Source of the DNA: Tubiluchus corallicola
Lineage: Eukaryota > Animalia > Priapulida
Reading direction: 5' to 3'
NCBI GenBank assembly: GCA_030141605.1
Contig: JAQGDQ010000267.1
Location: 186,001-250,000, forward strand
Length of the DNA stretch: 64,000 nucleotides
The position numbers and the translations under genes were made by a program. This document shows positions 18,301 to 51,554 of the stretch, in pieces (positions within the stretch are counted from its first letter, which is position 1; the number at the start of each line of letters is the position of its first letter). The notes beneath the pieces were generated by a model, which made no database searches, had not been told where the DNA came from, and worked only from the letters and a program-made list of their open reading frames with translations.

Positions 18301-18434
18301 AATGCAGTTTGTCTCAGTCTGTTTAGTTACCTCTTTAGATAATGTAGAGACAACCTGTACTGTAGTTCCTATATTGTAAAACTTCAGTTAATGGTGAAGC
18401 TTAATTTTCTCCTAGGATGTGATGTAAAGGAAAG

Positions 18435-28200: not shown

Positions 28201-30392
28201 ACAGTCTTTTGCTTGGTTAACTTGAATATTCGTTAAGTTTTATATAATCCTTAAAAATAGGCTGTTTCGAAGTTTTCGACATTATTCTGAGATTGGTACT
28301 GAAAACTAGTTAGATATGCTTATCTATAAACAGTTATTTTACGATGAACAGTTACTGCTTTAGTTTCGTTTTTGTTCACAAGAAGGGAAGCACGTGGGCT
28401 TAGAGAATGCTCAAGTTTGTCTATATTATATAACTAAGTTAATTATATGACAATATTTTAAATTTTCCAGTCTGCCGGATTGTGGCATGTGTTGGACTTG
28501 CTAAAGGTCTAAAATAAAACAATAAATACGAAAAAGCTGCAAGAAATACGATCTATTATGAGATAAAAAAGGACCAACAAGAAAATAAATAAAAATGATT
28601 TTATTTTGAGACGTGCAGCCCATAATAAAAAGAATAACTTATTAAGAAAAGGCGTGCAAGAAAATAACTACAAATATTTTTTTCATTTTGAGATGTGTTT
28701 AAATACTCTGATAAAAAATAAGAAAATCCAACGAGAAAATAACTAAAAAGTGCGTTTTATATTTTGCTAAGATATCGACATTGAACGATGATCATTTTAA
28801 CTGAATGATTTTAGTGTTTACTAGTAGCTCTGATAATGCCTGATCAAGATTTTGGTTTTAGTTAACAGTTATTACCTGGATAAAATGGAGTCTAATAAGG
28901 AACGGGAAACGCTGATGCTTTGTAAGGCAGTCGTTTAACGGCGGTGTACGGTGAAAGTTTTATTTCGTGAAAGTCAGTTGTAACAGTGTCTAAGGTCATT
29001 TAATTTAGTCAGCTCTTTTTACTTGATCAATTTGAACTTTTGAGAAGAATTTGAACTTGACAAAAGAATTTGTTCTAGTTGGAATGTTCAGTTGTTTAGT
29101 GGAATGCTCTATTGTTTAACATCCAGGGTTGCACATGCAAGCCTACTGGCTAGTTTAATGACCAGAAAATAGACAACCTCCATTTCGCTTAGGAATGCGC
29201 CAGCCCCTGAGCGCCAATTTATTTTCTTATTAAATGACAATTTTATTTTACTGGTGGCACGTTGTTTGCTGTTGGCAAGAATTTTAAGCACACAAACTTG
29301 TTCAAAGTTATGTAGTGTTAATGAAAGCTATATAGTTAAACGAAGATTTCCCATATTTCATTGTGTTGCATGTGTGATGACTTGGTTGTTTTTTCTTTGA
29401 GTAAGATTGGACCCTGCTTTTTTTCATGATTGCTAGTTGTCGGTATATTTTATACCTACAGCAATTTACCTTAATCAGCGTGTTCTTAATCAATGTGGAC
29501 ATTACCAAACAGCAATCACTGAATCTACTGTACAATGTATTTCAATTGACAAATGTTTTTCGATGTGCTAAAACTTGTAGCCCAACTATAGGTACCTGGA
29601 ATCAAAATTTACCCCTATACCACTATACACCTGTTCGACGTGCAATTATGAGTTGTTTACAAGGTTAACTCCTATCCCTCGCTTAGTTTTTTGTATTTTC
29701 TCAGCAGGACATGCGTTGAACAGGTGAAATAATGAGTAAAAATACAAGCGAAAGAGTTAACCGACTGCGCGGGGTAGCGTTTATGTGGTTAAACGTTTAT
29801 GATTGATGATGCAGTTTTAGTATTTAAGCCCCCAGGCTGGATTATTGCTAAAGAATTATAATCTTTGTCACATTTGGAATTCGTTCGGCGGGGTAGGAAT
29901 GTTGGTGGGATCTGAAATCACGCGGAGGTGTGTTCGTTTTTTACTCAACGTTAGTGCAAGGGCCCGCCCGAGAATGACTTAAAAAGTACTTCAGTTGTAA
30001 CGAGTGGTATTAACGCTTGTGCATAATTTTTTATCGGGTATAAATAACTGGAAAACTAAATCAACGTTAAATAGGAGTATTGAAATATAACTTCATTATT
30101 GCTTGAACGTGGAATTTTGCATAATAACATCTTGAATGGTGTTTAGGATCTGTAATGGGAACTCTTACATCATGCGTTACCGTGTTAGTTTGCCATTGTT
30201 GGTTTAATATGAAGATGTCTACTTTTTCCGAGCTTCTCAGTTTACGAGCTTTGATACTCGTACTCCTTCTTAGGTATTCCTCTTCGCATTCTGTATTTAG
30301 GTGTCGGATCTCTCTCTCTCTCTCTCTTTCTCTCTCTCCCTCCCTCCCCCTCCCTCCCCCCTCCCTCCCTCCCTCCCTCCCTTCCTCCCCCT

Positions 30393-30429
<37 letters not shown>

Positions 30430-31207
30430 CTCTCTCTCTCTCTCTCTCTCCGTCTCTCTCTCTCCGTCTCTCTCTCTGTCCGTCTCTCTCCCTCTCTCTG
30501 TCTCTCTCTGCTCCTGCTACTTTCGTTAACCCAATGGAATAATTCATGACAAACCCTAGGTGCAATGTATTACTCATAAAAATATTTATGGATTTTGTTA
30601 CCTCCTTTGTCGACGAGTTTTCACGCTCTGTCGCTTTCAAGGGCGAGCTGCCTGGCAAGAGTTAAACTTTGAAGTTTAGCGAAGGTGCTCCTCAAATTTG
30701 AAAACTGTCAGCCAGGTATGAGCTAATTAAAATGGTTCCAGCACATCTTTGATGTTTTATTGTTCCGGTTTTTAGGGTTTCATTGTTTCGGTTCTTTTCT
30801 TATCTCGGATGGGGTGATGTTGTCTCTCTTTTATTGCCTTATTGACTCAAGACTGTCTGTGATAATAAATAAAAAATAGATATAGCGACTGCTGTCAGCT
30901 CGTATTTTACTGATCTAATCATTTTTTTATTACTCATGCAGCATGTGTCAGTCATCCAGACAGTCAGTCAATCAACCAGGTCAAAATCGAAACGTGTTTT
31001 ATTCCAAATTTTGTCTTATTTCGTATTACGGTTTGTTTTCTCGTTTAATTTTCATTTTTCGTTCTTGCTTTCATTAGTAATGATGAGGAAAGTTGATTTT
31101 CTGTAGGGTTGATTCAGTAGAGTGATCTTGAATCCCTTTCGTGAATACATTTTCTTCTCTTTTTGCCCCCATCTTTCATTCTCTCTCTCCTTTCTCTCTC
31201 TCCCCCC

Positions 31208-31238
<31 letters not shown>

Positions 31239-34200
31239 GTTTTGTCATCCTCCACCCTTAAGAATTCCATCTATTCTTGGGAGTTTACCCGTCAGTAGGT
31301 CTATCTACTTAGCAAAGCAAACATACATCTCTTAATGAGGTGACACATTCCGCGGGTCCTTAGACAAGTTTCTTTGCTTTTTGAAAGTGGAATGACCAAC
31401 TAACTTGCCTCGTTTCAAATCCAAGGAATTTTATCACCTGGGGGTAGATTGGTCTTAATTATTGTTACAATGAGGGTGCAAAGTTTTTATGCGCCATGTT
31501 TTCTCATAATGACTTAATACAATTCATAATCTTGGATAAAAAGCTGAAAACTTAAAAAAAATAATTTGCGTGATACTGTATTTCTGTTTATCTCGTTAGC
31601 GATTTTACAATTTTAGTGCAATTAGAGTGGTTATCTTTTACTGATTATGATTGCGCAGACTGTTGTAATACTTAGGCCCCGCGCAGGTATGGAGTTTTTG
31701 GTTGTGCAATTAAAAATTGCAAAATCTGTAAATTGTTTCGAGAATCAAGATGCAGGTGATTTTGCATATTATGCCACAACAAAGTGTACTGTACACAATA
31801 CTAGTGTCGCCCTCTATAAGAAATATTTAACTAATACAATAGCTACTGTAACTTTAGAGATGTTTTATGCGACGGCACGCGTTAAGCCTGCATATTGCAG
31901 CAGTTTACTTGGTTTTTCGACATCATAAAAACATTTTTGACAGGTTTTGTACATTGCCCTGGTAACAGTAGTTAGTTATGCAAATCATGGTTGGCATTTT
32001 CTGACGAAAATTACCACGGATTAGGTGTATTTTGTCCAGGAATTATCCGTCTTAATCTTCAGATTATCCTTCTTAATCTTTTTAAAAGTTGTTGTTCCTC
32101 GGTAATTGCACATCTTTTATCTCATTGGCTTGCAATTCAAACTTACACTAGTTTTCTTATTATTTTGAATGATTTTTCATACGCGTGATCACTATGACTT
32201 TGTGTTACAAATGTACTTTCTTTTATTTGTTATTGCACAAAATATGCAATGCCGTTCATTTATTTTTTCTCCGGTTTGATAGCTGTGGTTAATTGGGTTC
32301 GATTCCAACTGGGCATTAACTGCACTACAGCCTGCACTTTATTTTGTCCAAATTGCAAGTTCTGCAAGTAGACACTATATTTAACGGTAAAATGTGCAAG
32401 GCATTTCCCTTGACCATATATTTTGAAACATTTTATTTTATAAGCACATTAATTACACGTGTATATATTGACACGGCGCCCAGAAAATTGATCTGGTCTC
32501 TAATTCAGCCTAATTACCTAATTGCGTTTTTTGCTGTGGAATCCACCTAACATAACAACAGCAAAGTCGTTCCTAATATGAAGTATTTTTCTGTATCATC
32601 TAATGCTTTAGTTTGGGATTGTTTAGCTGGTTTAATTTGTGTGGATTACAAAGTGACAGCCTATAAAATCTTATTGTGATCGGAAGACCTCTATGTTCCC
32701 TTCATATAATTCATTTGTAGGTAGGGTACTAAGTCATTGCATCCAGGTGTGGGCCCTTACTTTTCGTGTGCCAGATGGTTTCATTGGAATAAAATTGTAA
32801 ACTAAACTTGATAATGGGCGAGGTAAGTAGCTGCGTGAACCTGGTATATGCTTGCCTACGAAAAAATGGTCTGTAGTTAGTAAATGGATTGGCGACCAAT
32901 TCGTTGCATTGAGTGATCGGAAAATAGTTTCTTAGCGATTTCATCCGTTTAGCGTTTAGTTACCGGCTATTTCTGTTGATTCTCTAGTAAATGGATTGGT
33001 ATCCAATTCGTTGTGATAAGTGATCGGAAAATAGTTTTTTAGCGATTTCATCCGTTTACCGTTTAGTTTCCGGCTATTTCTGTTGATTCTATTAAATCGA
33101 TTAATCTTGATAACAAACAGGTTCCTGTCTGGCCACATTCACCTACATTAACTTGGTCCTGAGACGTTTGGTGTTTGAGAGTGTCGAACTGGATACAGGA
33201 TGATAAAAATAATCAAACACTTTAATTGACGTAGCTATTGTGTAAAGAATAAGTGCCCTTGGGTAGCTTTCCGTACTCCTGCTTAGTCAAAGCTTTCATG
33301 CCTCCTGGAATATTTTTTCTCATCTTCTTGGACTGTTTGCTCTTCTTAAGCGGCTCTGGGAACATCACCCTGATGGCTGGTTTACGTTTGAGAGGTCTTC
33401 TCTTATGCTAATTTCGCCCCAATAAAGGAAAGTCAAGGAGAGGTACTTTGTGTGAGGTGGATGAAATGCATTTAGGGTGGTAATTATTGCACTTGTCTTT
33501 AGAAGTCGGCATGAACAGCCCAAAATTTATCTTCATGTTCCTTTGCAAAGACAGAAATGAGGAATATTGATGTTACGAAAGTTTGTAATAAAAAATTTTG
33601 GAATTTGGTTTCACGCAATGTTGTGCTATACTCGTTTTCTGTATTTTTATGTTATGCCGACTTTTTCGTTCATATGACAAGGTAACTATATGTCTGTCTA
33701 GCTGCATATATATGTATATTCTATTTTATTACAGTGTACTATACGCTTTGCTGTCATACTGAGCAAAATATGTGAAAAATTACGCTAAAATTTTTATAGC
33801 TGATTACTTTAAGCCAAAAACATTTGTTAAAACATACATAGGCATATGTGGCAGGCAGATAGTTAATTTACACTGATTCAAATGTAAGTAATATTGTATA
33901 TAATCCGTGCACAATGGAATTTATAAATTAACTATATTGTTGTGCATTGTTTGGCTCACTCGCCAGGTTCTGCTACATTTTAAGCTGTCTTTGGCCTCGA
34001 TTCTGGTGCGCTTACTTTTTGTGTTCGAAACGAGTAAGCATAGTTCTTCGAGTGGTAATAACATTAAAATTCATGTGTACAGTCATTTATTCAGTTATTT
34101 GTTAGCGACAAAAACGTGAACTAGTTTTATAAAAAGGCTTTGCGTACTCATGTTCGAATGCGACATAGCGTGAAGTGGGCTTGGTTGGGTTTATTACAAG

Positions 34201-34743
34201 ATTTAAGCAAGTTTTAATGGATGAAGCTTAACATCAGTCAGTTTAATTTTTATATCCGCCCACAATTTTGTTTATGATTAATACAACCCTATTATAACAG
34301 TACTGGGTGGGAGGAAGGTCGCCTAATAGTTATAAATATGTTTTTGTGCGTCACCCCGCCAAATAATAAACAACTTCCGGTGGTGCTGTGGCGCTGCGAT
34401 CGGCTTTATTTTTTATAAAACATTTCCGACAGCATTTTTTGCTTATTCAAAGAATGATTTTTGTGTTAATGAAGGTAGCCTGGTTTTTCTCACTGAATCT
34501 AGTGTAAATGTGTTTTAAATTGCGCACATCTGGGTGGGGGTTTATTTATGGGTGTGCGGGGGCGGGAGCAGCGCATGAATGGGATTCCTGAGCCGGACCG
34601 CCGCAAAGAGAAATGCATATTCGTTAGATATGTCCATTTTTATTCTAAATGGAGTGCTGCGTGTCGTACTCTAACTGTGCGTTTAATTGGCTCTCGATGA
34701 TAGGAAAAAGCAGGCGTGTCAACGTCCCTTGACTTATTTTACA

Positions 34744-34821
<78 letters not shown>

Positions 34822-37800
34822 CTCTCTCTCTCTCTCTCCCTCTCTCTCTCTCTCCCCCCCTCTCTCTCTCTCGTCTTTCTCTCTTTCCCGTGCTCTCTCA
34901 CTCATTCTTCTTTGTGTCCTTCTTTCTCGTCCCACATTTTTGTTTTCTCCCTTTCTTGTATTTATGAAGAATCTTCTACTCGCGCATGCTAGTGTAATGC
35001 TGAATTTAGAAGTCCACAGAGTGAAGTTCACTGAGTGAAGAATATCACTTATTTGTATTTGTATACGCCTCCATGATTATTTGCTCACGTTGCCAAATAT
35101 GAAAGCAACTTTAATTATTTGTTCACTGACTTGTTGATGACTTACTGGATAGTGTGCACACGTCTAAATGTCCTTATCTACGTATAAATTCACTTAATTT
35201 TTAATTTTATTTTCACTTATGAGATTTGATCCCACATTTTACCGTCTGTTCTAATGATATTGTGCACTTGACCTGCTGTGTCCACTTGCCACTTGTCGTA
35301 AGTTCATGTACTCGGAGAGTGTTATTTTGTTCTTTTATGCCATGCAAATCCGGCATGACAGATTCAGCAAATTCTAACCAAAAGAATCGTCCCTCTTTTT
35401 CCACTTTTGTCACCTGGGCCAATAGAATATTTATGTCGTCACTGACTTTGGAGGTTTTATTCTTTTATGTTATTTTTGCTTGTTTATCTCGTACCTCGTT
35501 GAGGCAGGATGTATATGCATCCAAATAATTCGAATTTTTCTGTGTTGTCTGTATCTAGATTCAGAGAGTTATTCTTAATTATGAGCTAGGTTTCGGTCGC
35601 GCCGCAGCCATTATAAACAGGCTTTGAGTGCCGAATACTAGCTTGCAGTTGCCTATCACGTTACTGTATTTCAAAAAACGTTACTGTGTCAAATTCCAGA
35701 TAGTTTTTCTTTAATAGATTAAGTCCAGTGCGCCAGGTATGAGCTGTACAACCTCTAATCCTGTCCATTCAAAGCGTACAATAACACAGTTTAGTTTAAT
35801 GCGGATTATCTGAGCTTGATCCTCTAACAGCTTGACAAAATCAACGGTCTGAATGACTGCCTGCCTGTTGCAATTTGTCAGCTGGAATTTGGAAGGGAGG
35901 GCGCGCGCATGTGTGTGCGTAGCGGGCTGTGAGAATAAGTGGAATATTGAGGATAGCTTGTTGTAAAATTTACCGTCTTGTCACCAAACCGACGTTATGT
36001 AGCTTCTTAGGTCAATTTGAAAATATTGTCCGTTTTTTGCTCCTTTTCCTTTCTCTTTTTGTCTCCCCACACTCTGTCTCTTTCTCTTTATCCTCTCGCT
36101 CTCATCCACTACTTCCCTCTCTCCCTTTTTCTCTTTTCAAGCCCTATCATATCCTTTCCTTCCCCAATTTCCTTCATAAGCTTCTTCTAATGTCACATTT
36201 TAAGAATTCCGTGTTCAAAAGACGCCATATTTTAGTTTCAAGAGGGTTTTCGTCTTGAGTGCTTGAAACTGGAAGACTTCCTGTTCGGGGCTTGGCTTGA
36301 AGTGTATGATGATTGTAATAGATTTTCTTCATCATTCTAGAAATGGTTGTGCTTTATCTGTGACAGTAATGGCTGTTGTAAGAGTTTCCTTAGCCTTCGG
36401 CTTGTGACTGTTTACTTTTCTGTTAAAAACGTTTAAGCTTTTAGCTCCTTTATTATTTAATCTCAGTTTAGATGTAATGTGAATAAAACACATGCCGTCC
36501 AGTGTTTTTTGTTTATCAGGTTCAAATTAAGTCGATCACTGATAAAAAGTTTGGGAGAATTCAACGCACACAAAATTTGGTCTGACAGACTTAAAATATC
36601 TTTGATATTCTAATTTATTAAGATTTGGTTTTCTTTGTTGACTAGACTCTTTTCTATCTTTACACTTTAGAGCATTTTTGCTCAAGAAAAAGAGTTCGTT
36701 TGCATTTAAACTGTGGTTTTCTGTAAGGGGGATAAATTAAAGTAATTTTGTTTTTAATTTAATTTAGGTGTTTCTGGATGACTATAAGGAAGGCCAGCCT
36801 GCTATTTTGCGTTATGATATTGGAACTGGACATCAGATAGAACCAAGTCTTGCCAGAGATCCGACTGGCAGTCACCTTTACCTGTTGTCTAATGATAAGG
36901 TATCATTTTATAATCACTTAAAGATGTTTCCATAAGATACTGCCTGTAAAATATTGATTTTTTTATGATTGATCATGTATAATAGTTATACATATACATA
37001 TAATGCTTACACTTTTTTTTGAAATTTTGCAATTTTTTAAGTTTTTTGAAATTTTACAACTATAAAGCTGTGGTTTCAGTTCTGTTACTGTTTTATGTCA
37101 GGTTTGCTACATTTGCATAATTTGGGTTTTTTTTCATAATTGAACACTTTAAATCACAGGGGTTTCAATAACTTTATGCCTATTTTTGTACTTGTTTTGC
37201 TCCTAATTACAAATTTCCTGTTTCCTGTTGTGCATTCTATACAAAATTGATTCAGTGTATTTGTTTTCCGTTTTATTAGATTTATGTTGTGATAGTTACA
37301 ATTTATTCATTTCAAGTTGTAAAACTTTTGGGTGCTTTTTGCCTTCGAGGTGGAAAACTTCAAATAGGTGCTAAATTAATTACACACACAGTAATTTGCA
37401 TAAGTCTAAATTTCCTATATTTATTAAATTTCTCATGTTTTACCTTGCAGGTGGTGAAGTTTCCTATGTTCACGTGTGAGTTCTACACGGATTGTTCGAG
37501 ATGTGTGACCACGCCGGATCCACTTGGTTGTGGATGGTGTGGAGACCATTGTTCACGAGAGAAACAATGCCAGACCAACGTGTGGACCAGAAGCTGCCCT
37601 CCTATAATTAATTCGGTATGCATTAGCAAATACCTTAGGGAGTATGAACTTGCGATAAACTGGAAGTGAACAAATTTTCATTAATTTCCATTTCAGGCAA
37701 TATATGTCATAAGGTGCTTTGTAATTTCAACTGGATAATCTACTCTTGCTAAAATCTACATATTTCAAACAGTTGCAATCACCTTGCTGTTCTTAATACT

Positions 37801-40800
37801 GTGTGTTGTGTCTTTCACTTTACCTTATGCAACTATTAATATTTTCTTGTTAAATATTTTTTTACTTATTTGGCACAAAAAGCAGTGTATCCACTGGCAT
37901 AAGAGTTTCTTCTTTGGTTTAATGAAAATGACTTTAAGTTGTAACAATATCGATCAGCATCTAAATGCTCCCTAAGGAGCTGCACTGAGTTAACATGGAG
38001 ACTAAGTGATCTGATGTGGTTCAAAAGCTTTCCTCTTAGATGCTGAGTGTTTTATCTAGGTTTATAGTACCGATAGCCGCTGTGCTCACATTTATTTCCC
38101 TCTTGTATCATTATTTATCTTCTGATACCGTTCAGCAGTATATTATGTTACTGCGTATGGTAAATTATGAAAAATTACTTTTATATCCATACCGTGCAAG
38201 TAGAAAATAATCATCACATATGTGCAGTAAATCAGTAGTGACGTCATATTATGAGCGAAATGCTGCACAGTTTTTTCAAAGTTATAGTTGATTCTAAAAC
38301 TGTCTGTTTACACAGATTTGTTGATTTTGTCATGGTTTGTGTAAACAGATGCTGCACATTAATTTCTGAATCATGGGGAACTAAAATCTAAAAATGGCTC
38401 GGCTAATGCCACATGCTGGTAGTTTAGCTTCTCGAGGACTCGCTGACTATGGGTTCGATTCTAGGAAGAAAATGTTTAGGAAGTGGCAGCGTTTGTATTT
38501 GCTGCTTAGCACTTGAAATATGAAAGTTAGTTTAATTTGTGATGGAATTGACTAGTCATACTGCTACAGGTCTTGTTAGAAAGTTTTGATTATGACCCAT
38601 TCCTGTTAATGATGCAGGCTTCATTGTACAGCTTTAATGCCTGTTACAATTCGTTACCCTTTTGCTTGCGATGCACAGAAGCTTTCTTTGTCCTGAATTA
38701 CTTGTCCGGTTAAAGAATTGTATGGTTATTGTAAAAATCAAATATTACATTAAAATATTACTTTAGTCTAAAGTGATGGAACGTCCTTGGTAATACTTGT
38801 GTTGTCCACATCTTGGAACTTGATTCATAATGTACGACGACTGCATGAATGTTCACTCTTTGTTAAACTGTTTACTTGTGCCAAATTAAAACCAGTGAGA
38901 CACGAAATTCGTAGACCGTTCCCCGTGTATAAATTTGCCTTTTGCCAATTTTGCTGAAACTGCAGTTTTTGAGTTTGCATGGCTGTAATTATTTTATTAT
39001 TTATTTTTTATTGCACGTTATTATTTGTTTGTTGCCAGAAATTGTATAAACTGTTTTGAAAGTGAACTCAAATTTCTCCATTTTTTCTTTGGTTTATTAG
39101 GATTTCAGTTATAATCCCATATCTTCTCCTTATCTAGGTGTTTCCGCTTTCTGGTCCTGTTCAGGGTGGCACGCTTCTTGAGATCCAAGGGAACAACTTT
39201 GGTTCATCGGATGCTGGTCTCATCTCAGTAGAGCTCTCAACATCAGCGTGCATTGTCAACAAATGGAATATGACTGTGTATGTATAATACAATTTGTTTA
39301 CTACTGAATTATTACAAAAGTTTTTTTTGGAAAAAAGTTGACATAATAAAAGTGTTTGCCATTTTGTCTAGCTTCTTCTTTCTAAGAAGAAAACTAGAAA
39401 CCTCAGAGCTAGGAAATGCATATATTCTAGATCATAGGTGAAAACTGTGAGGGCAACGTGGACTTTTGTGATCGTCGTCATCATCGTTGTCATTGCCATG
39501 GTCATTATCATCATCATCATCATTGTTTAAAATTAGTCTGCTAAAGTGATTAGATGACATGCCTTGTTGTACATTTTTTGTTGGATAAACTTACAGCATA
39601 AATAGCAGACTACTATACATACGTTGTTACACATAACTTTATTCTTGAGCACTCAGTTTTTTTATCTTCAGAATCTGGTGTCGTACGAGCAAGTCAGAGG
39701 TGGAACTCAGTACAAGGGTTGCCGTCGAAGTCCATGACAAAACACTCAAATCTGCCCACTATCGGATTAGCGGTGTTGCCACATCAGATCACCTATTCCG
39801 CTATGCAGTAAGTTACTGAAACTTCCTGTTTATCATTACTAGTCTTGAACTCAAGACTGTGTGGTTGCAGTCCTAAATCTAAACCACTCAGCTATCCAAC
39901 CCAACCCAGCACTAATCTCATTTTCAATTATCTTTGCAGCCAATTGACTAACAAATTTAATCTGGTGCTAAAGTTTCAAATTACTCAAGAAGAGATTTTT
40001 TAGTCCGCATTTGAAGTTTTTACGTCATTTTTTCTACTCCCATCCAAAGCAGAAGTGCATAATATCCCTGTGTGGCATGTTGGTGTAAATTAAAATCAGT
40101 AATGCTTATGCCCCCTAAAAGCTTGTGTTATTTGATGCCCTTAAAGCCTCATGAATCCGGAGACATGCCAAGCAAATTGTCATTTACTTCCTGTTGTTAT
40201 TGCTAGTAATGTTTGATAAGTTTTAAATAGTACTGAGGGACTTTTGAAACACCAAATGTTGTGGTGGGTGAAGAATTATAAGTTATATTAATATGTCTGA
40301 TGAACCTGATCTCATTTTCATCCAAAAGTCGTCGTGTCGAAATGTGATATGGTCTTCTAATCTAACCTGAAATCTGGTGGTCTTATCGCATTGACTTTGA
40401 CTTATGTGTTTTTATTTTGTTCTGGCCTTGAGTAATCTAGTCCTACATTTTGTGGTCCACTTTTAGATTTATAAACCTTTTCAGAATTGTTTGTTTAGAT
40501 TTGTCTAAACTACTACATGTCTAAATTCGTGTGCTTTGAATTTAAAGTTTCTGGTTCAGTTGCAATCTTGTTTTGTCTGTTATTTATAGCAGTAAAAGTA
40601 TCCGCTTAACAGTTCATTCTAGTTGCACAAAGTTTGTTTATTTTACGCAAGCCGTTTATTTATAGATGCATTAACTAACTGCAAACATTCATCAGTTTAC
40701 GATTTACGAGCAAGTAAACTCCGGATCTGTGCATCGGCTCTCACTTTGTATCATTCATTTTTACAGATTCCGGAGATGACGGCATTTAGTCCGCTGCAGG

Positions 40801-43800
40801 GGCCTTTGTCCGGTGAAACAAACATCACAATTGTTGGTGAAAACTTGGACATCGGTCGGACACATTTTGTGAAGATTGCGGGGAGTGACTGCTCCATCTA
40901 CCGGTGAATAAATAACTTATGCAAAGGGAACAGCTTCTAGGAATTGACATGTTTTTATTTACAGTAGTGAGGAGCGTTTTAATTTACAGCCACTATCAAG
41001 TTAAAAAAATTCCTTTGTAGTATAAAGTAAGAGTTACAAAGCTGTAAGATGTAAAATGTTGTCTTGATAGTGCTTGCAAACAGAAACATTTGTCTCTACA
41101 GTTTTAGAACAATTTACAAAAACATTGTTACATTGTGTTACCATCTGCAGATGGTAGCATTGTAAATTCTTCTAAAATTGTAGGGATAACTGTTTCTGTT
41201 TGCAAGCACTATTAAGACAACATTACAACATTTTACCTCTTTTTCAGCTTTGTAACCTTTACTTTACACTACAAATAGTAAAGTGTTCAACAAGAATCAT
41301 CGAAAATTGAACTTGATACTGTAATATAACCATTTTGCACCTAATTGTTTTATTTTGTCCTAAGATACCTGCAAGTACCTGAAATTTTAGCCTTTAGTAA
41401 TTGGACAAAACCACCGAATGACTAAAATTGAGAATAGGGGGAGAGTGTGTGAAATGCAGAGCATTGACTTGCAGCACAGATTTATTAGACCACATTTACG
41501 AAACTGTATCTGAATAAAAAGTGCACGACTGTGGCTTAATTTTTTGTAATAATTTATTCATTTTAAGTAAACTTTGCTTGAACATTACCTTTATACAGGC
41601 TCTCAAGTACAATGGTGCAGTGCAGTACCAGTAAGAAGGCAGTGCCCAAAGCAAGTTTATTGAGAATGGCAATAGATGGGGCTGTGTTGCTATCTGAGCA
41701 GAAGTTCAAGTATATGGAGGATCCAGTGATTGGGGAAATCAGTCCAAAAACTAGTTTTGTCAAGTACGTTCACCCTCTTATATATACATGTTATATATAT
41801 AATATATTATATGTTATATATTATATATTTTCTGCCTGGTGAAATGGTTTTCCTAAAGAAAGTATCATGGAACGTGACAGCTGTACAATAACTTGTTGCG
41901 ATGTTTGTCATAAGAATTTTTGCCTTTTTAGTTTTTTTTAATACATTCTTATTATTTGTTCTAGTTTTTATGTACTGCTGTAGTGTTGTAATTTTTCTAT
42001 AGACTGCAATTTATTTTTTTATTTCAGGGGAGGAGTGCCTATCACTGTTACAGGGTCTCGTCTCAATGTTGTTGCAGATCCGCGAATGAAAATGAAGGTT
42101 GGACGTTTCACGTTTATATCGGTATGTGGCAGTTTATTCAACTTTGACGTGGTTTTATATAAATTTAAGTCTGTACTTAAGTGACGCAATGATGTAGCGA
42201 TGCAGTAAGGTGCTTGAAAAAATTCTTATATGTTTTTGCTGCAATAGCAAACATGACTTAAATTATTGTAGTTATTACAAGTGCTGCTTATAGCACATGA
42301 GTGATTGTGCAAATTATTTTTTCTGTATTAATTGCAGTCATTTTAGTTCAGCACTTTAGTATATTGATCCAGTTCATGATGACATCTAGTTGACCTTGGA
42401 AAATTTATTTATTTATGTTTTATGAACATTCTGTGTTGTATAAAAATGTTGTATAAAGTATAAAGTTGTGAAACTTTCTTTCAAAACTGTGGATTGTATA
42501 AAATCTACATGAATTCTATTTGAACTCCAAATATCAGTGAAAGTTTTTTCTGGCATTTGTGAACTGGTAGTCCTCGTCTTACGACCAAATTCCACTTAAT
42601 TAATTAATTATGCAAAATCAACTATAACTCAATATTTTTATAGTTTTTAAACAAATTAACTTTAAGTCGCTATCTATTGCGACAAATTCATCGTAGCCAT
42701 TGCCATACTTACTGTACATATACATACAATGTCGCGTATGTAGGGATGCACTGCTTGAATGTACGGGTCCAACTTGCATCCAGTTCATCTTGTGACAACT
42801 TCGCCTGAACCGACTGTGGTCGTCGATGAATATTTGTAATAGAGAATTGCAGTAACAGTTATTGAGGAGTTTAGTATGAACTAACTGAGAGATGTCTAAG
42901 AGAATCAAATTTTCTTTTTTTTTCATTTAACATCTTGTCCTTTTAGTCATGCACACCAAACATCAATGGATCAGAGATGGTCTGCCCTGCTCCAGACATC
43001 ACTGACGTCTCAGTGATTGCAACTCGGGACCTTCCCTTCCAGACATACATGTTCTTCATCATGGACGGAGTGGCCGACAATTTCTCCATCGAGGCTTCAT
43101 CCGCACGCTGGTTCCTGTACTATCCTAACCCAGATTTCTTTCCATTCCCAGATGGACACAAGGAGGTCAGTCTCATCTCTAATGATGGGAACATGCAGCT
43201 GGAGGTATTGTGTTTTGTGAAGTTTTCTCGTCTTGTGCCGATACGTCTGTTTAGCTTAAAAACTTGTTTTTTATCTTTTAACATTTGAATTGTTTTATTA
43301 GAGCTTTAGCAGCATTCACGCAATTTTTATTATTCATGACTTTTATGTATTTATAAGTATTGTTCGTACTTACATTTTTGCTCAGCTCAAATTTATTATT
43401 TTGTCAAAAGAACTATTTATCTATTGTACACTCTGTGTAACCTCTTAAACCAATCCCGAAAATGCGTTTTCTTTGCTGTGCCATGATCTGGTGATCGATC
43501 TATAAACGCTGGTTGTTTTTTTACAATTATCATAATTATTTTTCCATTTCAGGGTAACAATCTTGACCTTGGTTATGAGATGGACCAGCTGCATATAACC
43601 ATTGGTGAACTGGGAGAGTGTAACGTCACCAAAGTTATGGAAAAAGTCGTATACTGCATGCCACCTGTATTAGGCGGAGTGAATCCGAGTGATACATTTC
43701 ATGTGCAGGTAATCAGCTGTTTGGATGATAATGTGTAATAAACAAAATAGAATCAAAAGTTACCACTCAAGTTATTTGATTAGTGTTTCTAATACGTCAC

Positions 43801-46800
43801 GGAGTGTTTAGAACAAGACACATTAATTTCACTAACAAACATGATTTAGTATTTTAAATGGGAATTGTAACACTCACTGATTAGTTTGTTTATTTCAAGT
43901 GGATGTAGATTTCATAAATGCTGTTCAATGAAATGTGTGAAAGCATTTCTTGACTGTTCGTACATCCTATGTGTACAAAAGAAGTTTCACTAGGTAGACG
44001 TTTTGTATTACACTTGAGTGATTAAAATTTTGTTGCTATGAAGCAAGACTAAGTAATTAAACAATTTGTAAATGTGCATCGTGCAAGTCTTCTGATATGT
44101 TAATTGGAAGCTGTCTAAGTAATTTTCTGTTTTCTGAACAAGATCTGTTTAGCTATTTCCACTATTTTTATTCGCACGCTACTTAGAATTGCTTACAGCT
44201 AATTTTAAGTTTAGGTAGCACCTTCATTTAAAATACTTGTGCCGAGATTGACCCACCTTCACATTAGAATATCTGTAGGTTTGTAAATTAATTACGTGAT
44301 TCACGAACATGATGTTTGTCACTGGTATTTTGTTTTCAAGTCATAATGATTGGTTAATCTGTTAAGTTGTAGAAAAATTCGGCGAGGTCTTTGTTTTGCA
44401 GCTTACTGTTTATAGTTCACAACTATGCAAAATATTTCCAGGTGAAGGTTGGTAATCTGGTGTTCCTCGATCTTGGTACCATCTCATTTCTGAAGGTGGA
44501 GCAGCTGCGTGCATCTGGTCATGGTGCTGACGGTGGGTCCTGGGCTTGGATAATGGTAAGTGCAGTTTCCGAAATGGCTGTGACCTGTAAATGACTTTTG
44601 CATTCCAGTTCCTGGACTTTCTGTGCTATTCATTTTCATAATCATTAAACAGTGTGTCCTCAGGACATTCATTTGTGGATTTTCCTTGCTGCATTTTATT
44701 CCACATTATGTTAGCCATCTATTATAACATTTAAACAGATGGTATGGCTTCCATAAAAAATGAAATTAGATAAATCTTGAAACAAGACGTAAGCAGAATT
44801 CAAGTTTACAAAACACACTTCTTTGTTGTACTTAATATTATTTTTGCTTTTATATATTCTCAGCAGAAACATATTTACTCTGCCTTTTCTTGCTAGAACT
44901 GTGAAGTATTGTCATTCGATCGTTTTCCATTAACCTATCGATCCTTTTTGCCATTAATAAAGAACTAACACTGGTGCAGATCTCTTATGAATGAAATAAT
45001 GATTTTATTATACAGTCTTTTAAAGTACAGTTAGCCATTACAATATATGTGCAAGAAAGAAAAGACTTAAATCAGGGTTTTCGAGTTACCAAAATCTTGA
45101 TGTACTTTGTGAATTGTCGAGACGCCATTGGCCAATCGTCTGCATGACGTGCTCCACATCTCGTGATTCTAGCAAACATGTGCACAAATAGCATGCTGAC
45201 CCAGATGCTTGGTACCTGTGGTCCACCTGGTGAAATTTCTCTTGTATGAAGCCTTGCAGCGATTGCCTCATGTTTTTGCCGTCTGTGGTGCTGTAATCGG
45301 TAAAGAACTCATCTGATTGGTCACTCAACAACAGCTTCTCCAGTGTGTCCATTTTGTTGAGGACAAGCACCAGTTTAGCCTCTCCTAACCACTTTGTATA
45401 AGAGATCTCCTGGTAGAAGGCCAATGTTTCTTCAAATCTGTTGATGTATTCTGGGTTGCGAGGGTTTTGGTTGAAGCAGCTAGCATCTGCGAGGAAGATC
45501 ACTGCCAGAGCTTTCTCGAAATAATGAATGAACTTCCTCCAGTTTGTCTCCTGGTTGCCAATGACGACCAACCTCATTTTTAGTCCATTTTCGATGAAGT
45601 TGAACTCGTGGACTCCTAGAGAGAGGTCATGCTCGGATTTCAGGATGTCCTCGTCGGTTGGTACATAGCTTTCACTATGACCCACTAATCCGCTGACACG
45701 CTTCCAGAAGTAAGCCTCACTTTCATTGAATTTCGACATGTCTTCTTTTGAAGACCTTGGCAGTTCATTCCACAGCGTGACCAAATGACTCAGCAGTTTT
45801 TGCTCGTTATCGAACCTCGCTGGCATCTCGTAGCCGTCGTGGTTTCGTTGTCGTGTCGACACATACAGATGATTCACGGTTGGCGCGAGTGGTTTTGAAT
45901 CAAACTGCTTTCCCATCTCTTTCTTTAATGCAGTGTAGATGGTGCTGCATATACTAAACAGGTATTCTCGTCTCTGCTCTGTTTTCTGCTTGTATTGGTA
46001 GAGAATTTTGGCTTGCTTTAGTAGTGTTGCTTTACCTGACTCTGGTAGTCCAACTACGAGGATGTCCCACTACAAATAAATAAAAATGTTTTAACCAAAA
46101 TAGTTTTGTTTTGTGTATAAAATCAATGTTGTGTATAGCAAAATAAAATAATGTATACTTGCCCCTGGAAAGAGAAATCAAATTCACTGTAGATTCAATA
46201 CATAGAATCATGTATTGTAGCATTTTGTATATAGAATTAACAAGACAAAACATTAACAACACATAAAGGTATTGAGATATTATCATAATATAGGTACATT
46301 AAGATATGTTAAGAAATTCTCTATCCAGGTTTGTGATGCATCTCAGCACAAATGTACATGTCAAATGTTCGACTCCCACCTTGGTTGATCTTCAATATGT
46401 TCTTTAATATGACACCATATATTAAAGCACATTCACTACTGCTTTATGCCTAAAAGCAAACCTGGGTTCCTAACCATTCTTACGCATTTTGAACACTTTT
46501 GTTGCTAGCAGACATGACACGATCATAAAAATACATACTCTTTGCTCTGGAGGACTTCTGGTTGGCGACTTTGGGTTTTTGCTTTTATCCATGTCTTCCA
46601 CTTCTTAGTCTACATCTGCACTCCAAATTAACTGTTTCACTTTGTCATGTTATTTTGTCTGACGAAGAATCACTAAATGTAGCAAAGCACTGTGTAAATA
46701 ACCTGGCAAATTTATGATGTCTATACAAAACTGCTTTTCTCGTCGTGTTAGACTACCTAGTATTTTGTGCTTAGAATAGAGACAGGATGGATGTATAATG

Positions 46801-49800
46801 TAGTTGTATCTTCAGAACCTAAGAGCAGGAAGTTGGTCTCTCATTTCTACAGGGACACTTCCACTTTCACTTCCTGATTAGCCCAGTCACTTCAATAAGC
46901 TGTGCACATTCGTAAATAAAGTATCATTTAACTGACAAATTGTATACTTATGAAAAAAAGTGTTCTATATCTTAATAAAAACTACTTGTTATATTGCTTG
47001 TTTAACAATTTAGGCATTTAAAGATGTATCCTCATTAAAATTATGTAAAGGTAATTTGAAAAGTCGCTTTTAATGATTTTCTTTAATTTAATTTTTCACA
47101 GTTTGCTATAAACTTTCTCCTGAAATCTGAGGTGCATCTCAAGTTAAATGCTGTCAACTACCTCGTGTCTGTATAATGCAAAACTGTTATAGTACAGTAT
47201 GTACGCTGTTTTGTATGCAGGTGCCAAAAATAAAACCATATGTTTTGCATAATGTACTATAAAAAAGTGTTTGCAATACCTGTGCTGCCATGTAGAAAAT
47301 TTAGTTTTGATTTCATAGACACAGTGCATTAATAAATGATACATACTTTTGCCCAGCATCATAGGTTGATGATTAAACTCTGTTTGTCTTCATTCTAAAA
47401 TAATTTATTTTGTGGACATCTTATTTGATATATAACCTCAATTTGCCTATAATTAGGTCAAGTTAACAAAGGTGGCAGTACAGATGTGCAGGTTTGAAAA
47501 ATACATCTAATTTGACAGTAAAAATTCTATTAATTTTCATCATTTTTACCTTTTTCTAGGCGGCCCTGGTGGTTATCGTGATTGTTGCTTTACTTGGTGT
47601 GATGCTTTACATGAAGAAAAAGCACAAAGGTCCATTTCACCGGCCACCGATCAACCAGCCCAATGTCCGGTACACCACTGCATCCAGAATGGCGGATCAG
47701 GAGTATCAATTGGCCAACACGTCCCGTCAGTATTTACGAAATGGTACGCACTTTTCATATTCAATCAGCTGATGTAATACTGATCTTTTGTGCGAATAAC
47801 CACTAAACTTGTATCGAAAAATGTAATAATTAACGAAAAGTTTGTCATAACCGTCTGTATGAAATATAAAATGAGGAAAATGGTTAGAAAAGACATTAAT
47901 GTCATGAATATTAATGCATATCTGTTGATGGGTAAATTCTGTTCTTCACTTTCTCCGGATCGTAACATACACCAGACTCAGATATTTCTGTTGAGTATGC
48001 TGTGGTATTAGTGCTGTCGGTTGACCTTTTCTTCTTTTTCGCAGTCTACGATTCGGTACCCGAACAACGTCGTGATGCACAAGGTGCTTGTAGCGCAGAG
48101 TCAGATGAGGAGATGTGGCTCCTTCTACAGGATCAAAATATAGTGATTGATCGGCAGTTTCTGAAACTTGACTATGTCATTGGTCAAGGTAAGCTTACTG
48201 TTTACATACTTTAAGGCGACTACTTAAATACATGAACTGCATAAATGAGAATAAAAAGTGAGCTGGTATAGCTTAGTGGCAGAGTATGTTCACAATTTTG
48301 CACATTCAAAAAATTTATCGGCAGTTTTTCAAGTTCTTCATTTTTTGGTTACTCGTTTGTGATGTAAGCTTATAAGCAGATTTGTTTCGCCGTGAAGTCG
48401 TTTTGTTCTCGTGGTAGTTGTTCATGTAACAAGTCTTTAGCCAATTTGTTTATATTGTGACATCACAATAGAATAACTTCACTTTTCAAATTTTTGCTAT
48501 AAAATCAATTCTGCTACAACACTAAATGGTGTTCTGAACGGCATTAATGAAATGGATCCATGGTAACCATAAGTGTCATTCTAAACAACATATCCAGGCA
48601 GTTGGACAGAAAAAACTAAATAAGCGAGTAATCCTATTCTTTGCATATCAGAGTAGTTTTCTGGTCAACAAACCGAAAAGCTTATTAATACTTTTGACTA
48701 TTATTACACTATGAGATCATTGTTGACAAATATTAATCAGTTTATCTTGATTGTTTTTACAGGACATTTTGGCTGTGTTTATCGAGGATTGCTCTTGGAT
48801 AAAGCAGAAGAGCAGAGAGAAGTGGCTGTGAAGACGTTAAATAGTGAGTTTTGCACACTGTATATATGTCATTTTATAATGCCTTTCTTCAAGAGCACTT
48901 AGTTATTATTTACTGTCACATTGACTATGTGAGACATGAATGGTTTATAATCAGTATGTACTGCGCAAGGGATGGTATGTATGCGAAAAATGTCTAGTTT
49001 CTGATCAGTGATTTTCTCAATGGCAACTATTTATCTATTGTAAAATATTACGAGATTAATTTCTTCCGGCTCTTCTACAATCCTGATATTTTTGTCCTAA
49101 CTCCTGATATTATTTTCAGATCCCATGTCAGATGTAGATGATTCTGTTACGGCATTCCTCCGCGAGGGTCTAATGATGAAGGATTTCCGGCATGAAAACG
49201 TCCTTACCCTTATCGGTGTCTGTGTACCTCAAGAAAATGAGGGACCGATGGTCGTTCTGCCGTTTATGAAGCACGGTGACCTACTGTCTTATCTTCGGCA
49301 TTCAGACAATGTAAGTAGAATCAGTTTTTTGTACCAGTTTTTTCCTTTAGTAAGTGAAAAGAATTGAAGTTGAAATGAGTTCATTTGGGTGTGAAAACAT
49401 TTTAAAATATGAAGGATGTTACAAAGACCCACTAGAGTGCTGACTTTTGCCAACAAGTGCAAAATCTTCCAGTTGCCATTGCTGCACTCGAGTTTAACAA
49501 ACTTTTCACTGTCTCACACCCTTCTTTTGTGGTTTCGTGGAAATTCTTTAGTTTCTGGATAATCTTAACAAGCAAACAATTGGCAACGAAAGCATAACTT
49601 TCTTGATGGTACAATTCAAGCACAATGAAAATTGCACGAATATTGAAACACTTGGCATCATTGTGACAGCTAAAGTTTTAATATAATTGTACTGTAGTAA
49701 GCTGTTAAAAGAAGATTTACGATAGTCTGTGATAACAGTATATTTGATTTTTTACTTACTAGGGTTTAATCTAACTCTGTGAAATCTGTGTACATGTGCC

Positions 49801-51554
49801 TTTTCTTGCAGAATCCCACAGTACGAGATTTGCTAACGTTTGCTATTCAAATTGGGGCTGGCATGGCATATCTAGCCGATCTCAAGTTCGTACATCGAGA
49901 TCTAGCTGCCAGAAACTGCATGTAAGTTTAAGTAAGGTTTAATAAAACTACTACGCAATTAAGAGAAAGAAAAAATGAAAATTATATGGTAAAGATCAGT
50001 ACGATCAAAAATCAATATGGCAGCAGTCGTCCAAAAAAATTTGTCATTTTTTTGTCTTATACAATACAAGAATAATTTGTGTAATAAATGCCTCATTTTG
50101 GTTCACAGTGAAAAATATAAATTGTAGAGTTGAAGATTACAATTACTAAAAAGTGAACAAAATTTTAACTTTGTTATGTTTCTGTTTCTGTAGAAAACTC
50201 CCAATGCTATAATTTAATATTTCAAAATTTTTTATCTGCATTAGCTGATTTAAAGCCGGTACCCAGCTTGCTGTGAGTTTTTGCTGTGCTGTAAAGCAGA
50301 TTTTTATTTTAGGTTGGATGAACATCTCGTTGTTAAGGTAGCAGATTTTGGTCTGTCACGGGACATCTACGAACGTGACTACTATAGTGCCAAGGACAAG
50401 AATGCCAAGCTACCCGTTAAGTGGATGGCCATAGAGAGTCTGGAGAAGGGAACTTACAATTCAAAAACTGACGTGGTGTGTATGACCTCTTACTTTCAAA
50501 TTATGTTTTCACAGTCAAAAACTGATTTATTCAAATATTTAGTTCTGGTTTATCATTTTAAATCTGTAAAAAAAGTATTATAGTGCTGTAACCTGTTCTA
50601 AATCAGTATTTAGCTCTTTGTGCTTCGGAAGCGATACTTCATTATCCGCATTAAAATTTTGCCAAAGTTGGGATTTGCTTATCCGTGTTTTTGCATAACT
50701 GTTATTTGTGTACATACACAGTTTGGAGTAAGCAGACTATTCACATACTCAGTGTAATGTGGGACTAGATGAACACCACGTGAATTGAATTGCTTAGCAG
50801 ATTTGCACAATTTGAATTTAGTTGAGATGGTTGGAATTTTAAGCATGTTACTCTAAACATGTGTTACTATAATTGCTGTGTTGAATTGGTCTCCATTTAC
50901 AAAATGTGAACGTTTGTAGGTGTTATATTTGAATATTTCATGCTGTACTTGTAATTGTTATTGATTTTCCTGATTTATATTTTATCATAGTGGTCATACG
51001 GCGTGGTACTTTGGGAGTTGATGACACGTGGAGTTTGTCCGTATCCTGATGTCGATAACTGGGACATTTTGGCCTACCTAAAATGCGGTCGTCGAATGCC
51101 AAAGCCGAATGATTACTGTCCATCTATAGTGTGAGTATTCGAAAAGAATTTCTGAGAATGGTGGCATTTGGGACAAAGACATTGTTGAACCTTATTCTGT
51201 AGGATTTTCTTTGTTTCTTGAAGTTAACAAGGATTGTGTTTTGAGACTGTGTTCTGTTTTAGCTATAGTACGTTTCGTGATTTTACTTACTATTTTCTGG
51301 TAGGTATATTGTAATGTTCTTCTTACACTTCCATTTCTTTTAGGTACAACATAATGTTGCGATGCTGGTCTGTTAACGCTAATGATCGTCCATCGTTCCA
51401 CGACATGGTGGCTGAAATTGAATCATTTCTAGAGCGTGCCGGTCATCAACAACGACCCGACCCGTCCTCTGTACAGTACATTAACATACAGCAGACAGAG
51501 TCATCTGGTGGCAGCTTGGAGCGACCAGATGATGAGGCAAGCACACCTGTGTAA
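18435..51554 (+). CDS. MET: MET/RON-family (hepatocyte growth factor receptor-like) receptor tyrosine kinase; 21 coding exons, 3996 nt, about 1331 aa
   Basis: Signal peptide, Sema domain, PSI ([15 protein letters not shown]), four IPT/TIG repeats, TM, and kinase with [48 protein letters not shown] and [14 protein letters not shown]. All exons join in frame at GT-AG sites. Confidence 0.95.
19611..19916 (+). CDS. MET: MET-like coding exon 2 (Sema)
   Basis: ttgcag / gtaagt; [15 protein letters not shown]...[14 protein letters not shown]. Confidence 0.92.
20534..20713 (+). CDS. MET: MET-like coding exon 3 (Sema)
   Basis: ctatag / gtaagt; [10 protein letters not shown]...[11 protein letters not shown]. 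Confidence 0.9.
26697..26840 (-). mobile_element. Probable 3' end of a non-LTR retrotransposon (stem-loop, AATAAA, (TTCATAG)n tail)
   Basis: Nested inverted repeat AGGTGAGTGT..GACC ATAC GGTC..ACACTCACCT. On the minus strand it is followed by AATAAA and 3-4 copies of a 7-nt repeat, a layout typical of CR1/L2-group LINE tails. Confidence 0.5.
26905..27163. repeat. Three tandem copies of a roughly 90-bp AT-rich unit
   Basis: ACATAATATG(G/T)AATTACGATTTTGAT recurs at 26911, 27002 and 27092. Confidence 0.9.
30308..30510. repeat. Compound (CT)n/(CCCT)n microsatellite
   Basis: Direct inspection. Confidence 0.9.
32878..33090. repeat. Tandem duplication of a 107-bp unit (2 copies)
   Basis: TAGTAAATGGATTGG...TATTTCTGTTGATTCT starts at 32878 and at 32985. 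Confidence 0.9.
34746..34905. repeat. (CT)n microsatellite
   Basis: Direct inspection. Confidence 0.9.
36768..36899 (+). CDS. MET: MET-like coding exon 4 (end of Sema)
   Basis: tttag / gtatca; [19 protein letters not shown]...HLYLLSNDK; phase 0-0. Confidence 0.88.
37451..37615 (+). CDS. MET: MET-like coding exon 5 (PSI domain)
   Basis: ttgcag / gtatgc; cysteine pattern of a PSI domain. Confidence 0.92.
39138..39277 (+). CDS. MET: MET-like coding exon 6 (IPT1)
   Basis: [22 protein letters not shown]; tctag / gtatgt. Confidence 0.9.
39672..39807 (+). CDS. MET: MET-like coding exon 7 (IPT1)
   Basis: IWCRTSKS...HLFRYA; ttcag / gtaagt; phase-compatible. Confidence 0.88.
40767..40903 (+). CDS. 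MET: MET-like coding exon 8 (IPT2)
   Basis: [24 protein letters not shown]; ttacag / gtgaat. Confidence 0.9.
41014..41275. repeat. Large imperfect inverted repeat (fold-back/MITE-like) in a MET intron
   Basis: The arm TGTTGTCTTGATAGTGCTTGCAAACAGAAACA pairs with TGTTTCTGTTTGCAAGCACTATTAAGACAACA; central palindrome ACCATCTGCAGATGGT. Confidence 0.85.
41599..41763 (+). CDS. MET: MET-like coding exon 9 (IPT2/3)
   Basis: VQCSTS...[19 protein letters not shown]; atacag / gtacgt. Confidence 0.9.
42028..42121 (+). CDS. MET: MET-like coding exon 10 (IPT3)
   Basis: [20 protein letters not shown]; ttcag / gtatgt. Confidence 0.9.
42947..43204 (+). CDS. MET: MET-like coding exon 11 (IPT3/4)
   Basis: MVCPAP...FIMDGV...FLYYPNPDF; tttag / gtattg. 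Confidence 0.9.
43553..43708 (+). CDS. MET: MET-like coding exon 12 (IPT4)
   Basis: GNNLDLG...[12 protein letters not shown]...VYCMPP; ttcag / gtaatc. Confidence 0.9.
44442..44555 (+). CDS. MET: MET-like coding exon 13 (end of IPT4, start of TM)
   Basis: [16 protein letters not shown]...SWAWIM; tccag / gtaagt. Confidence 0.88.
45004..45009 (-). promoter_or_regulatory. Candidate polyadenylation signal of the nested G-alpha-like gene
   Basis: AATAAA on the minus strand about 77 nt after the stop codon. Confidence 0.45.
45086..46592 (-). CDS. Divergent heterotrimeric G-protein alpha subunit-like protein (probable pseudo-GTPase), nested antisense in the MET intron; exons 46592-46539 and 46069-45086; about 345 aa
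   Basis: Exon 1 [18 protein letters not shown] (donor gtatgt) joins in phase 0 to exon 2 (acceptor tttgtag): [23 protein letters not shown]...YVPTDEDIL...[14 protein letters not shown]...NRFEETL...LVLNKMD...TC. The G-alpha motifs occur in the correct order and spacing. Confidence 0.88.
47560..47743 (+). CDS. MET: MET-like coding exon 14 (TM plus juxtamembrane)
   Basis: [18 protein letters not shown] followed by the KKKHK stop-transfer; ttctag / gtacgc. Confidence 0.9.
48045..48188 (+). CDS. MET: MET-like coding exon 15 (juxtamembrane to kinase start)
   Basis: ...[10 protein letters not shown]; tcgcag / gtaagc. Confidence 0.9.
48763..48843 (+). CDS. MET: MET-like coding exon 16 (kinase Gly loop, VAVK)
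   Basis: HFGCVYRG...VAVKTLN; tacag / gtgagt. Confidence 0.93.
49120..49310 (+). CDS. MET: MET-like coding exon 17 (kinase)
   Basis: [23 protein letters not shown]...PFMKHGDL; ttcag / gtaagt. Confidence 0.93.
49812..49921 (+). CDS. MET: MET-like coding exon 18 (catalytic loop)
   Basis: NPTVRDLL...[11 protein letters not shown]; ttgcag / gtaagt. Confidence 0.95.
50313..50475 (+). CDS. MET: MET-like coding exon 19 (activation loop)
   Basis: [19 protein letters not shown]...[11 protein letters not shown]...KTDV. Confidence 0.95.
50991..51130 (+). CDS. MET: MET-like coding exon 20
   Basis: [21 protein letters not shown]...; catag / gtgagt. Confidence 0.93.
51344..51554 (+). CDS. MET: MET-like coding exon 21 (kinase end and C-terminal docking tail)
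   Basis: YNIMLRCW...RPSF...VQYINIQQ...STPV*. Confidence 0.92.

Follow-up and report, generated by a model that had tools for sequence, protein, structure and literature searches.

A conserved, lineage-restricted and putatively switch-dead G-alpha encoded antisense within a MET/RON-like receptor gene of Tubiluchus corallicola

The 64,000-nucleotide stretch of T. corallicola DNA analysed in this work (the window) carries a real and intact G-alpha gene, which lies antisense to an intact MET/RON-like receptor tyrosine kinase gene and wholly within one of its introns (Table 1). From comparison with its relatives, the encoded protein appears to be a conserved, lineage-restricted and switch-dead G-alpha. 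We propose, with moderate confidence, that it would be locked in the GDP state, its switch II/alpha3 surface serving as a permanent binding site, as a natural counterpart of dominant-negative mutants.

Structure of the antisense gene and its surroundings

The initial annotation had described a complete, stop-free gene of 345 amino acids with its own start exon, a GT-AG intron and a polyadenylation signal, and both the coordinates and the frame were reproduced. Joined, the two exons form an open frame of 345 aa, with an in-frame TAA five codons 5' of the ATG. When the host intron was base-shuffled 200 times and the longest stop-free frame scored, the longest frame reached 153 codons (mean 92), against the 327 observed in G-alpha exon 2. 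In the profile comparison that the annotation had recommended, this exon matched Pfam PF00503 at 162.5 bits (cut-off 48.8, E 1.9e-47), and the nearest solved structures by sequence were those of Gi1 and Gq (E about 3e-23). No second G-alpha was detected in the 64-kb window at E below 0.01. Two coding differences were listed for the gene in run X1, one silent and one non-synonymous, and no coding indel was listed for the part covered by this run.

Table 1 Positions of the antisense G-alpha gene, its motifs and its host gene in the window.
Feature	Position	Strand	Remarks
MET/RON-like receptor tyrosine kinase gene	18432..51554	+	last 11 exons (42947-51554) assembled into a single open frame; the more 5' exons placed only through tblastn matches
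Host intron bearing the G-alpha gene	44556..47559	+	~3 kb; follows the last exon of the extracellular part and precedes the transmembrane exon
G-alpha exon 1	46539..46592	-	54 nt, 18 codons; Pro/Ser-rich, without Gly2 and without Cys; occupies the position of the N-terminal helix
G-alpha intron	46070..46538	-	469 nt, GT-AG, phase 0; junction joined in proteins from contigs of 1078 and 1299 nt
G-alpha exon 2	45086..46069	-	327 codons and stop; entire Ras-like and helical domains, intron-free
G1/P-loop	46025..46051	-	G42P in 4/4; Gly-Lys and Thr kept; position 47 Ala (window), Ser (P0002), Ser (P0004), Asp (P0003)
Switch I	45611..45649	-	Arg178 to Glu in 4/4; Thr181 to Ser in 3/4 and Leu in 1/4 (alignment-dependent, one-residue insertion)
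G3/switch II	45518..45565	-	D200V, G203N, R208W; Q204 kept; 18/21 shared with P0003 (54% identity) across Gi1 199-219
Alpha3 helix and alpha3-beta5 loop	45386..45442	-	E245 and W258 kept; L249F; 18/21 shared with P0003 (54% identity) across Gi1 242-262
G4 NKxD	45347..45358	-	intact in 4/4
G5	45173..45181	-	Cys kept; A326 to Leu or Met in 4/4
Candidate polyadenylation signal AATAAA	45004..45009	-	starts at 45009

A structure model, built on a 108-row alignment composed mostly of canonical G-alphas and thus biased towards their fold, was predicted with pLDDT 88.3 and pTM 0.87 and consisted of a Ras-like domain with an inserted helical domain. It matched G-alpha structures with Z 22.8-24.4 over about 290 aligned residues (rmsd 4.2-5.5), and the GDP-state and GTP-state matches were tied within 1 Z unit, the model not telling the two states apart. 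An earlier model from the four-sequence alignment was poor (pLDDT 57.5) and was set aside.

The host receptor contained Pfam matches to Sema, PSI and kinase domains. Its best named relatives, from a set of 17 matches, were proteins annotated as HGF or MSP receptors and came from chelicerates, a myriapod, molluscs and a tunicate. The kinase was at most 70% identical to any of the 17, and its placement in the tree was weak and outside the mollusc group. The gene has a large first Sema exon, an intron of ~16.5 kb (about 20720-37360) without a tblastn match, and no close named relative. Contigs of run X2 (presumed to be RNA, with ~10% divergence) skip four introns of this MET gene; none of these spliced contigs lies over the G-alpha, an observation that is neutral for its expression.

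Two short intronic stretches of the window (42600-42790 and 48460-48750) stood at 10-20x the surrounding depth in the assembly of run X1, where loose ends were numerous, and probably derive from a dispersed repeat or from a small mobile element. An exon on the minus strand (56275-56553) with a sub-threshold LSM-domain match (E 0.00037; 20.6 bits, cut-off 23.4), which we take to resemble LSm3, probably belongs to an adjacent gene that converges on the MET-like one. Two tandem arrays were also found, at 59515-60309 (79 nt x 10.1, 94% matches) and at 61380-61859 (159 nt x 3.0, 95% matches), the second being open as a 176-codon repeat ORF without a Pfam match above cut-off. Eighty-three other window ORFs of at least 62 aa gave nothing against Pfam beyond one sub-threshold match.

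Relatives, conservation and origin

Three orthologues of the G-alpha were recovered, P0004, P0002 and P0003 (95, 92 and 54% identity), all unnamed proteins from unannotated Logan assemblies. P0002 and P0003 were the two matches among the 975 candidates of a word-indexed search, and P0004 was added from the cluster of P0002. P0002 and P0004 are 345 aa each, open with homologues of the exon-1 peptide, as was also seen with tblastn, and have this peptide already joined to exon 2. Since the 1038-nt frame plus the 469-nt intron exceed the contigs of 1078 and 1299 nt that encode them, these contigs are most likely spliced transcripts, and the joined peptides support the predicted splice. P0003 starts with 32 residues of unrelated sequence that stop at this exon junction, which looks like read-through of an intron at the same place. 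PF00503 scores were 164.7 bits for P0002 and 144.1 bits for P0003.

HMMER, run exhaustively over 1.84 billion representatives, returned 3392 proteins at E <=0.001, among which P0002 was the sole protein below 1e-30; the remaining 149 of the best 150 matches had 24-38% identity. The alignment of the four sequences, used as a search profile, added no new members, a metagenome scan yielded one G-alpha (L001, 28%) among the matches listed, and only general clusters of G-alphas came from the ESM Atlas. The distribution is narrow, comprising four sequences of which three are at least 92% alike. The searches also turned up an unrelated G-alpha of 334 aa (P0071) with the same Ser-to-Ala change in G1 and with both the Asp and the Gln of G3 lost, an independent degenerate G-alpha. 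Several long representatives (P0005, P0017, P0034, P0133, P0055, P0089 and P0153) contain two or three tandem G-alpha stretches or are joined to ENTH, RVT_1 or PigL_N, and may be gene-calling fusions. A G-beta sequence was present in none of 12 long matches.

Conservation within the clade is uneven. Between the window protein and P0003, 18 of 21 positions are identical in switch II (Gi1 199-219) and 18 of 21 in alpha3 (242-262), with 42/115 in the helical domain and 9/25 in alpha5; the corresponding counts for Gi versus Gq are 18/21, 9/21, 48/114 and 12/25. Only 7 of the 21 switch II positions of the clade match Gi1, and this region was therefore rewired and then held. In a core of 43 residues, whose boundaries were chosen after the alignment had been viewed, 41 are identical to P0003 versus 130/284 elsewhere, and the differences of the close orthologues that fall in this core number 0/25 and 1/17. 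Frames are open in all four clade sequences, down to 54% identity. The initial annotation had argued for a selected degenerate G-alpha rather than a decaying pseudogene and had named frame disruption in relatives as contrary evidence; no disruption was found in the four sequences, and the argument is upheld by the intact frames of the 95, 92 and 54% orthologues, by the uneven conservation and by the common loss of switch residues.

In the phylogeny the four sequences formed a clade with 100% support, grouped with no G-alpha class, on a very long stem of 1.9 substitutions per site (FastTree, 127 rows) or about 4.5 (mixture model, 33 selected rows); divergence within the clade was about 1.2 substitutions per site. 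The class anchors of the tree, recognised by characteristic motifs, were Gi, Gq/11 and Gs, with none identified for Go, G12 or Gv. The four sequences, as placed by this tree, are a long-stemmed orphan clade of a narrow lineage joined to none of Gi, Gq/11 and Gs, for which the term undescribed G-alpha class, used in the initial annotation, is an overstatement.

The sole intron of the gene sits upstream of beta1, and at least four exon borders that Gi, Gq, Gv and Gs genes are described as having in common, in the cited part of PMC5896119, are absent from it. An intron-free stretch of 327 codons, set against these common borders, suggests that the gene arose as a retrocopy whose first exon is new: a copy would have landed in the MET intron and then gained its 5' exon.

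Residues kept and lost, and the proposed function

For the analysis of individual residues, numbered as in Gi1, the four clade members were aligned with 123 of the 149 other HMMER matches, 26 having been dropped by length. Changes common to all four were G42P, R178E, D200V, G203N, R208W and A326L/M, while G45, K46, T48, Q204, E245, NKxD and C325 were kept. The canonical residue is present in 122 of the 123 other G-alphas at D200, in 121 at G203, in 121 at R208 and in 116 at R178, and Ala occupies position 326 in 115/120. Over ten core residues, 94 of the 123 had no change, 23 had one, four had two, two had three and none had four or more; the clade members have 4-5 of the ten changed, a count that falls from four to three in P0002 and P0004 if Ser at 181 is counted as kept. 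We also compared residue sets that were drawn up after the alignment had been seen and whose roles in Gi1 numbering are those we presume. The guanine/beta-phosphate set was identical in all four sequences at 7/8 positions and the activation set had 0/7 positions kept by all four; the G-beta-contact set was identical at 9/16 and similar or identical at 12/16, with positions 182, 183, 207 and 214 changed.

All five motifs reported in the initial annotation read in the window as described there. The loss of the catalytic Arg of switch I (Glu at 178), the loss of Asp and Gly from G3 with its Gln kept, the replacement of the Ala in the TCA of G5 (Leu in the window) and the intact NKxD hold for all four sequences. 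The Ser-to-Ala change in G1 is present in the window but does not characterise the family, P0002 and P0004 having Ser and P0003 Asp; with Ser kept in two of three orthologues, it does not serve as evidence of Mg2+ loss. Ala47 may be a polymorphism; one mismatch lies somewhere in the run X1 contig that spans its codon. The case for Mg2+ loss rests mainly on D200V, because position 47 is Ala in the window only and Thr181 is replaced by Ser in three sequences. The changes most informative for mechanism had been overlooked, namely G42P, G203N together with R208W, A326L/M, and the lost N-terminal helix and lipidation motifs. The first Gly of G1 is residue 25, compared to a median of 41 (3/101 matches at 25 or less), giving an N-terminus ~16 residues shorter, and the N-terminal exon has neither Gly2 nor a Cys, one of which is present in 94/104 full-length matches. 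The N-terminal helix and the lipidation motifs are missing.

The N-terminal helix is the second G-beta contact in canonical trimers, and switch II and alpha3 form the effector groove of canonical G-alphas. In the cited part of bioRxiv 2020.11.15.383679, G203, R208 and E245 are described as an activation triad that locks the GTP state, and the R208S mutant as binding G-beta-gamma equally in both states. The G42R mutant is described, in the cited part of PMC3285607, as unable to reach the active shape and as favouring G-beta-gamma and GoLoco whatever the nucleotide state, and G203A/A326S is deposited, by its entry title, as a dominant-negative heterotrimer (PDB 5TDH). With all four of these mutant positions (42, 203, 208 and 326) changed and the guanine pocket kept, we infer a GDP-state-locked protein. 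A guanine nucleotide, most likely GDP, would be bound via the kept Gly-Lys, Thr48, NKxD and Cys325, and no GTP-driven switching would occur, the residues that sense gamma-phosphate and Mg2+ being replaced. Through its switch II/alpha3 face the protein would constitutively bind an off-state partner, either G-beta-gamma or a motif of the GoLoco/GBA type, and this binding would buffer normal G-protein signalling or divert it. Without an N-terminal helix or lipid anchor, the protein would reach membranes only through that partner. It would behave as a fixed off-state adaptor or decoy and not as a molecular switch.

The main objection to this off-state reading is the absent N-terminal helix, which makes G-beta-gamma less probable as the partner; partners of the GoLoco or GBA type would remain, as would a fixed on-like shape. 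Four G-beta-contact positions are changed, and many of those kept are also structural. G42P differs from the studied G42R, and the comparison comprises only four sequences, three of them at least 92% alike. Mg2+ binding may persist, given Ser47 in 2/4 and a possible Ser stand-in for Thr181 in 3/4. Q204 is kept. A326L/M may leave too little room in the guanine pocket for any nucleotide to bind; in the cited part of PMC10862895, A366S is described as weakening GTPgammaS affinity. An extended form of the off-state reading, which we consider doubtful, would make the gene a natural animal dominant-negative: a retrocopy at the MET locus co-regulated with the receptor, GDP-shaped, holding G-beta-gamma or a GBA/GoLoco adaptor and gating G-protein signalling wherever MET is expressed, without GPCR or nucleotide exchange.

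The same surface could instead be frozen in an on-like form, a possibility that we deem unlikely though worth serious thought. A putative packing of Trp208 against Phe249 of alpha3 would replace the Arg208-Glu245 latch, keep switch II ordered and present the effector groove at all times, nucleotide or not. R208W and L249F both occur in 4/4, switch II and alpha3 are the most conserved surface (in the region picked after viewing the alignment, as above), loss of Arg178 activates canonical G-alphas, and the absence of the N-terminal helix suits a protein no longer associated with G-beta-gamma. G203N, D200V and G42P, however, all oppose the canonical active shape, and the tie between GDP- and GTP-state matches lends the on-like form no structural preference. 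Rather improbable, in our view, is a nucleotide-free scaffold like plant XLG2, in which NKxD and the P-loop Lys would be structural leftovers. XLG2 is described as having very low GTP affinity and as working without GTP (cited part of PMC8584482), and A326L/M and G42P alter the pocket; yet 7/8 guanine/beta-phosphate positions have stayed identical over the roughly 1.2 substitutions per site within the clade, and XLGs are described, in the same part of that source, as losing whole motifs, unlike the clade.

The kept Q204, K46 and NKxD, with Ser47 in 2/4, would also suit an atypical GTPase that still cycles, either slowly or with a GAP supplying the Arg in trans, but D200, G203 and R208, canonical in 121-122 of the 123 other G-alphas, are changed in all four members of the clade. 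This reading and functional coupling to the host MET together strike us as very unlikely. Such coupling follows up the link to RTK signalling suggested in the initial annotation, for which nothing was found beyond the nested position beside the transmembrane exon; nested genes are common and nesting implies no functional link, and the location inside the MET gene is probably incidental. A decaying retro-pseudogene, its frame open by chance or recent origin, would account for the intron-free body, a stem as long as about 4.5 substitutions per site and the non-synonymous member of the two differences listed in run X1. Against it stand the open frames of four sequences down to 54% identity, the uneven conservation, the sparing of the core by close-orthologue differences (0/25 and 1/17), the proteins with the exon junction joined and the lack of coding indels in the part covered by run X1, and we regard it as extremely improbable. 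The GDP-locked protein with a fixed binding face is the reading we retain.

Comparison with known G-alpha proteins

The protein shares with the canonical animal G-alphas Gi1, Gq and Gs the fold with its helical domain, the P-loop Lys, Q204, NKxD and 24-33% identity over near-full-length matches, but lacks their Arg178, Asp200, Gly203, Arg208, Gly42, Ala326, N-terminal helix and lipidation motif, has an unrelated C-terminal tail and is encoded by an intron-free gene body. The engineered Gi1 mutants G203A/A326S, R208S and G42R are changed at the same positions and, as far as the sources cited above describe them, stay off-shaped or on G-beta-gamma. The clade differs from them in that its substitutions arose naturally, are stacked in one protein, introduce other residues and accompany the loss of the N-terminal helix.

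A divergent holozoan G-alpha family that includes Nematostella and Lottia (de Mendoza et al. 2014, PMC3971589) resembles the clade in being an unclassified animal G-alpha branch, a likeness drawn from the description in the cited part, which gives no motif detail. No annotated mollusc or cnidarian protein emerged as a close relative in the word-indexed and profile searches, and identity with this family is unlikely. The planarian 'G-alpha-like' genes, considered as a further candidate, are truncated transcripts according to the cited part of PMC10078920 and are not this protein. GNAZ, preGNA12 and the intronless preGNAI of tunicates, which the cited part of PMC5896119 traces to retrotransposition with later intron gain, are retro-derived, as this gene appears to be, but a loss of switch residues is not described there. 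A full-text literature search, with most subscription journals outside its coverage, returned no described animal G-alpha in which the activation triad had been lost under selection.

The switch residues of animal G-alphas are almost invariant. If the reading favoured here is true, animals, like plants with their XLGs, evolved a pseudo-G-alpha, in which dominant-negative positions were stacked naturally while the switch II/alpha3 face stayed near-constant, and the protein would offer a clean test of what a G-alpha does without switching, its reach being limited by the narrow distribution over four sequences. Plant XLGs are the closest parallel in kind: in the cited part of PMC8584482 they are described as containing a G-alpha domain with degenerate nucleotide motifs that works independently of nucleotide exchange. 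They are plant-specific and carry a long N-terminal extension, whereas the protein described here is of animal origin, 345 aa long, shortened at its N-terminus and has kept its guanine pocket. Degenerate G-alphas therefore have a known precedent in the XLGs, and what would be new is an animal, apparently switch-dead form with a conserved and rewired switch II/alpha3 face.
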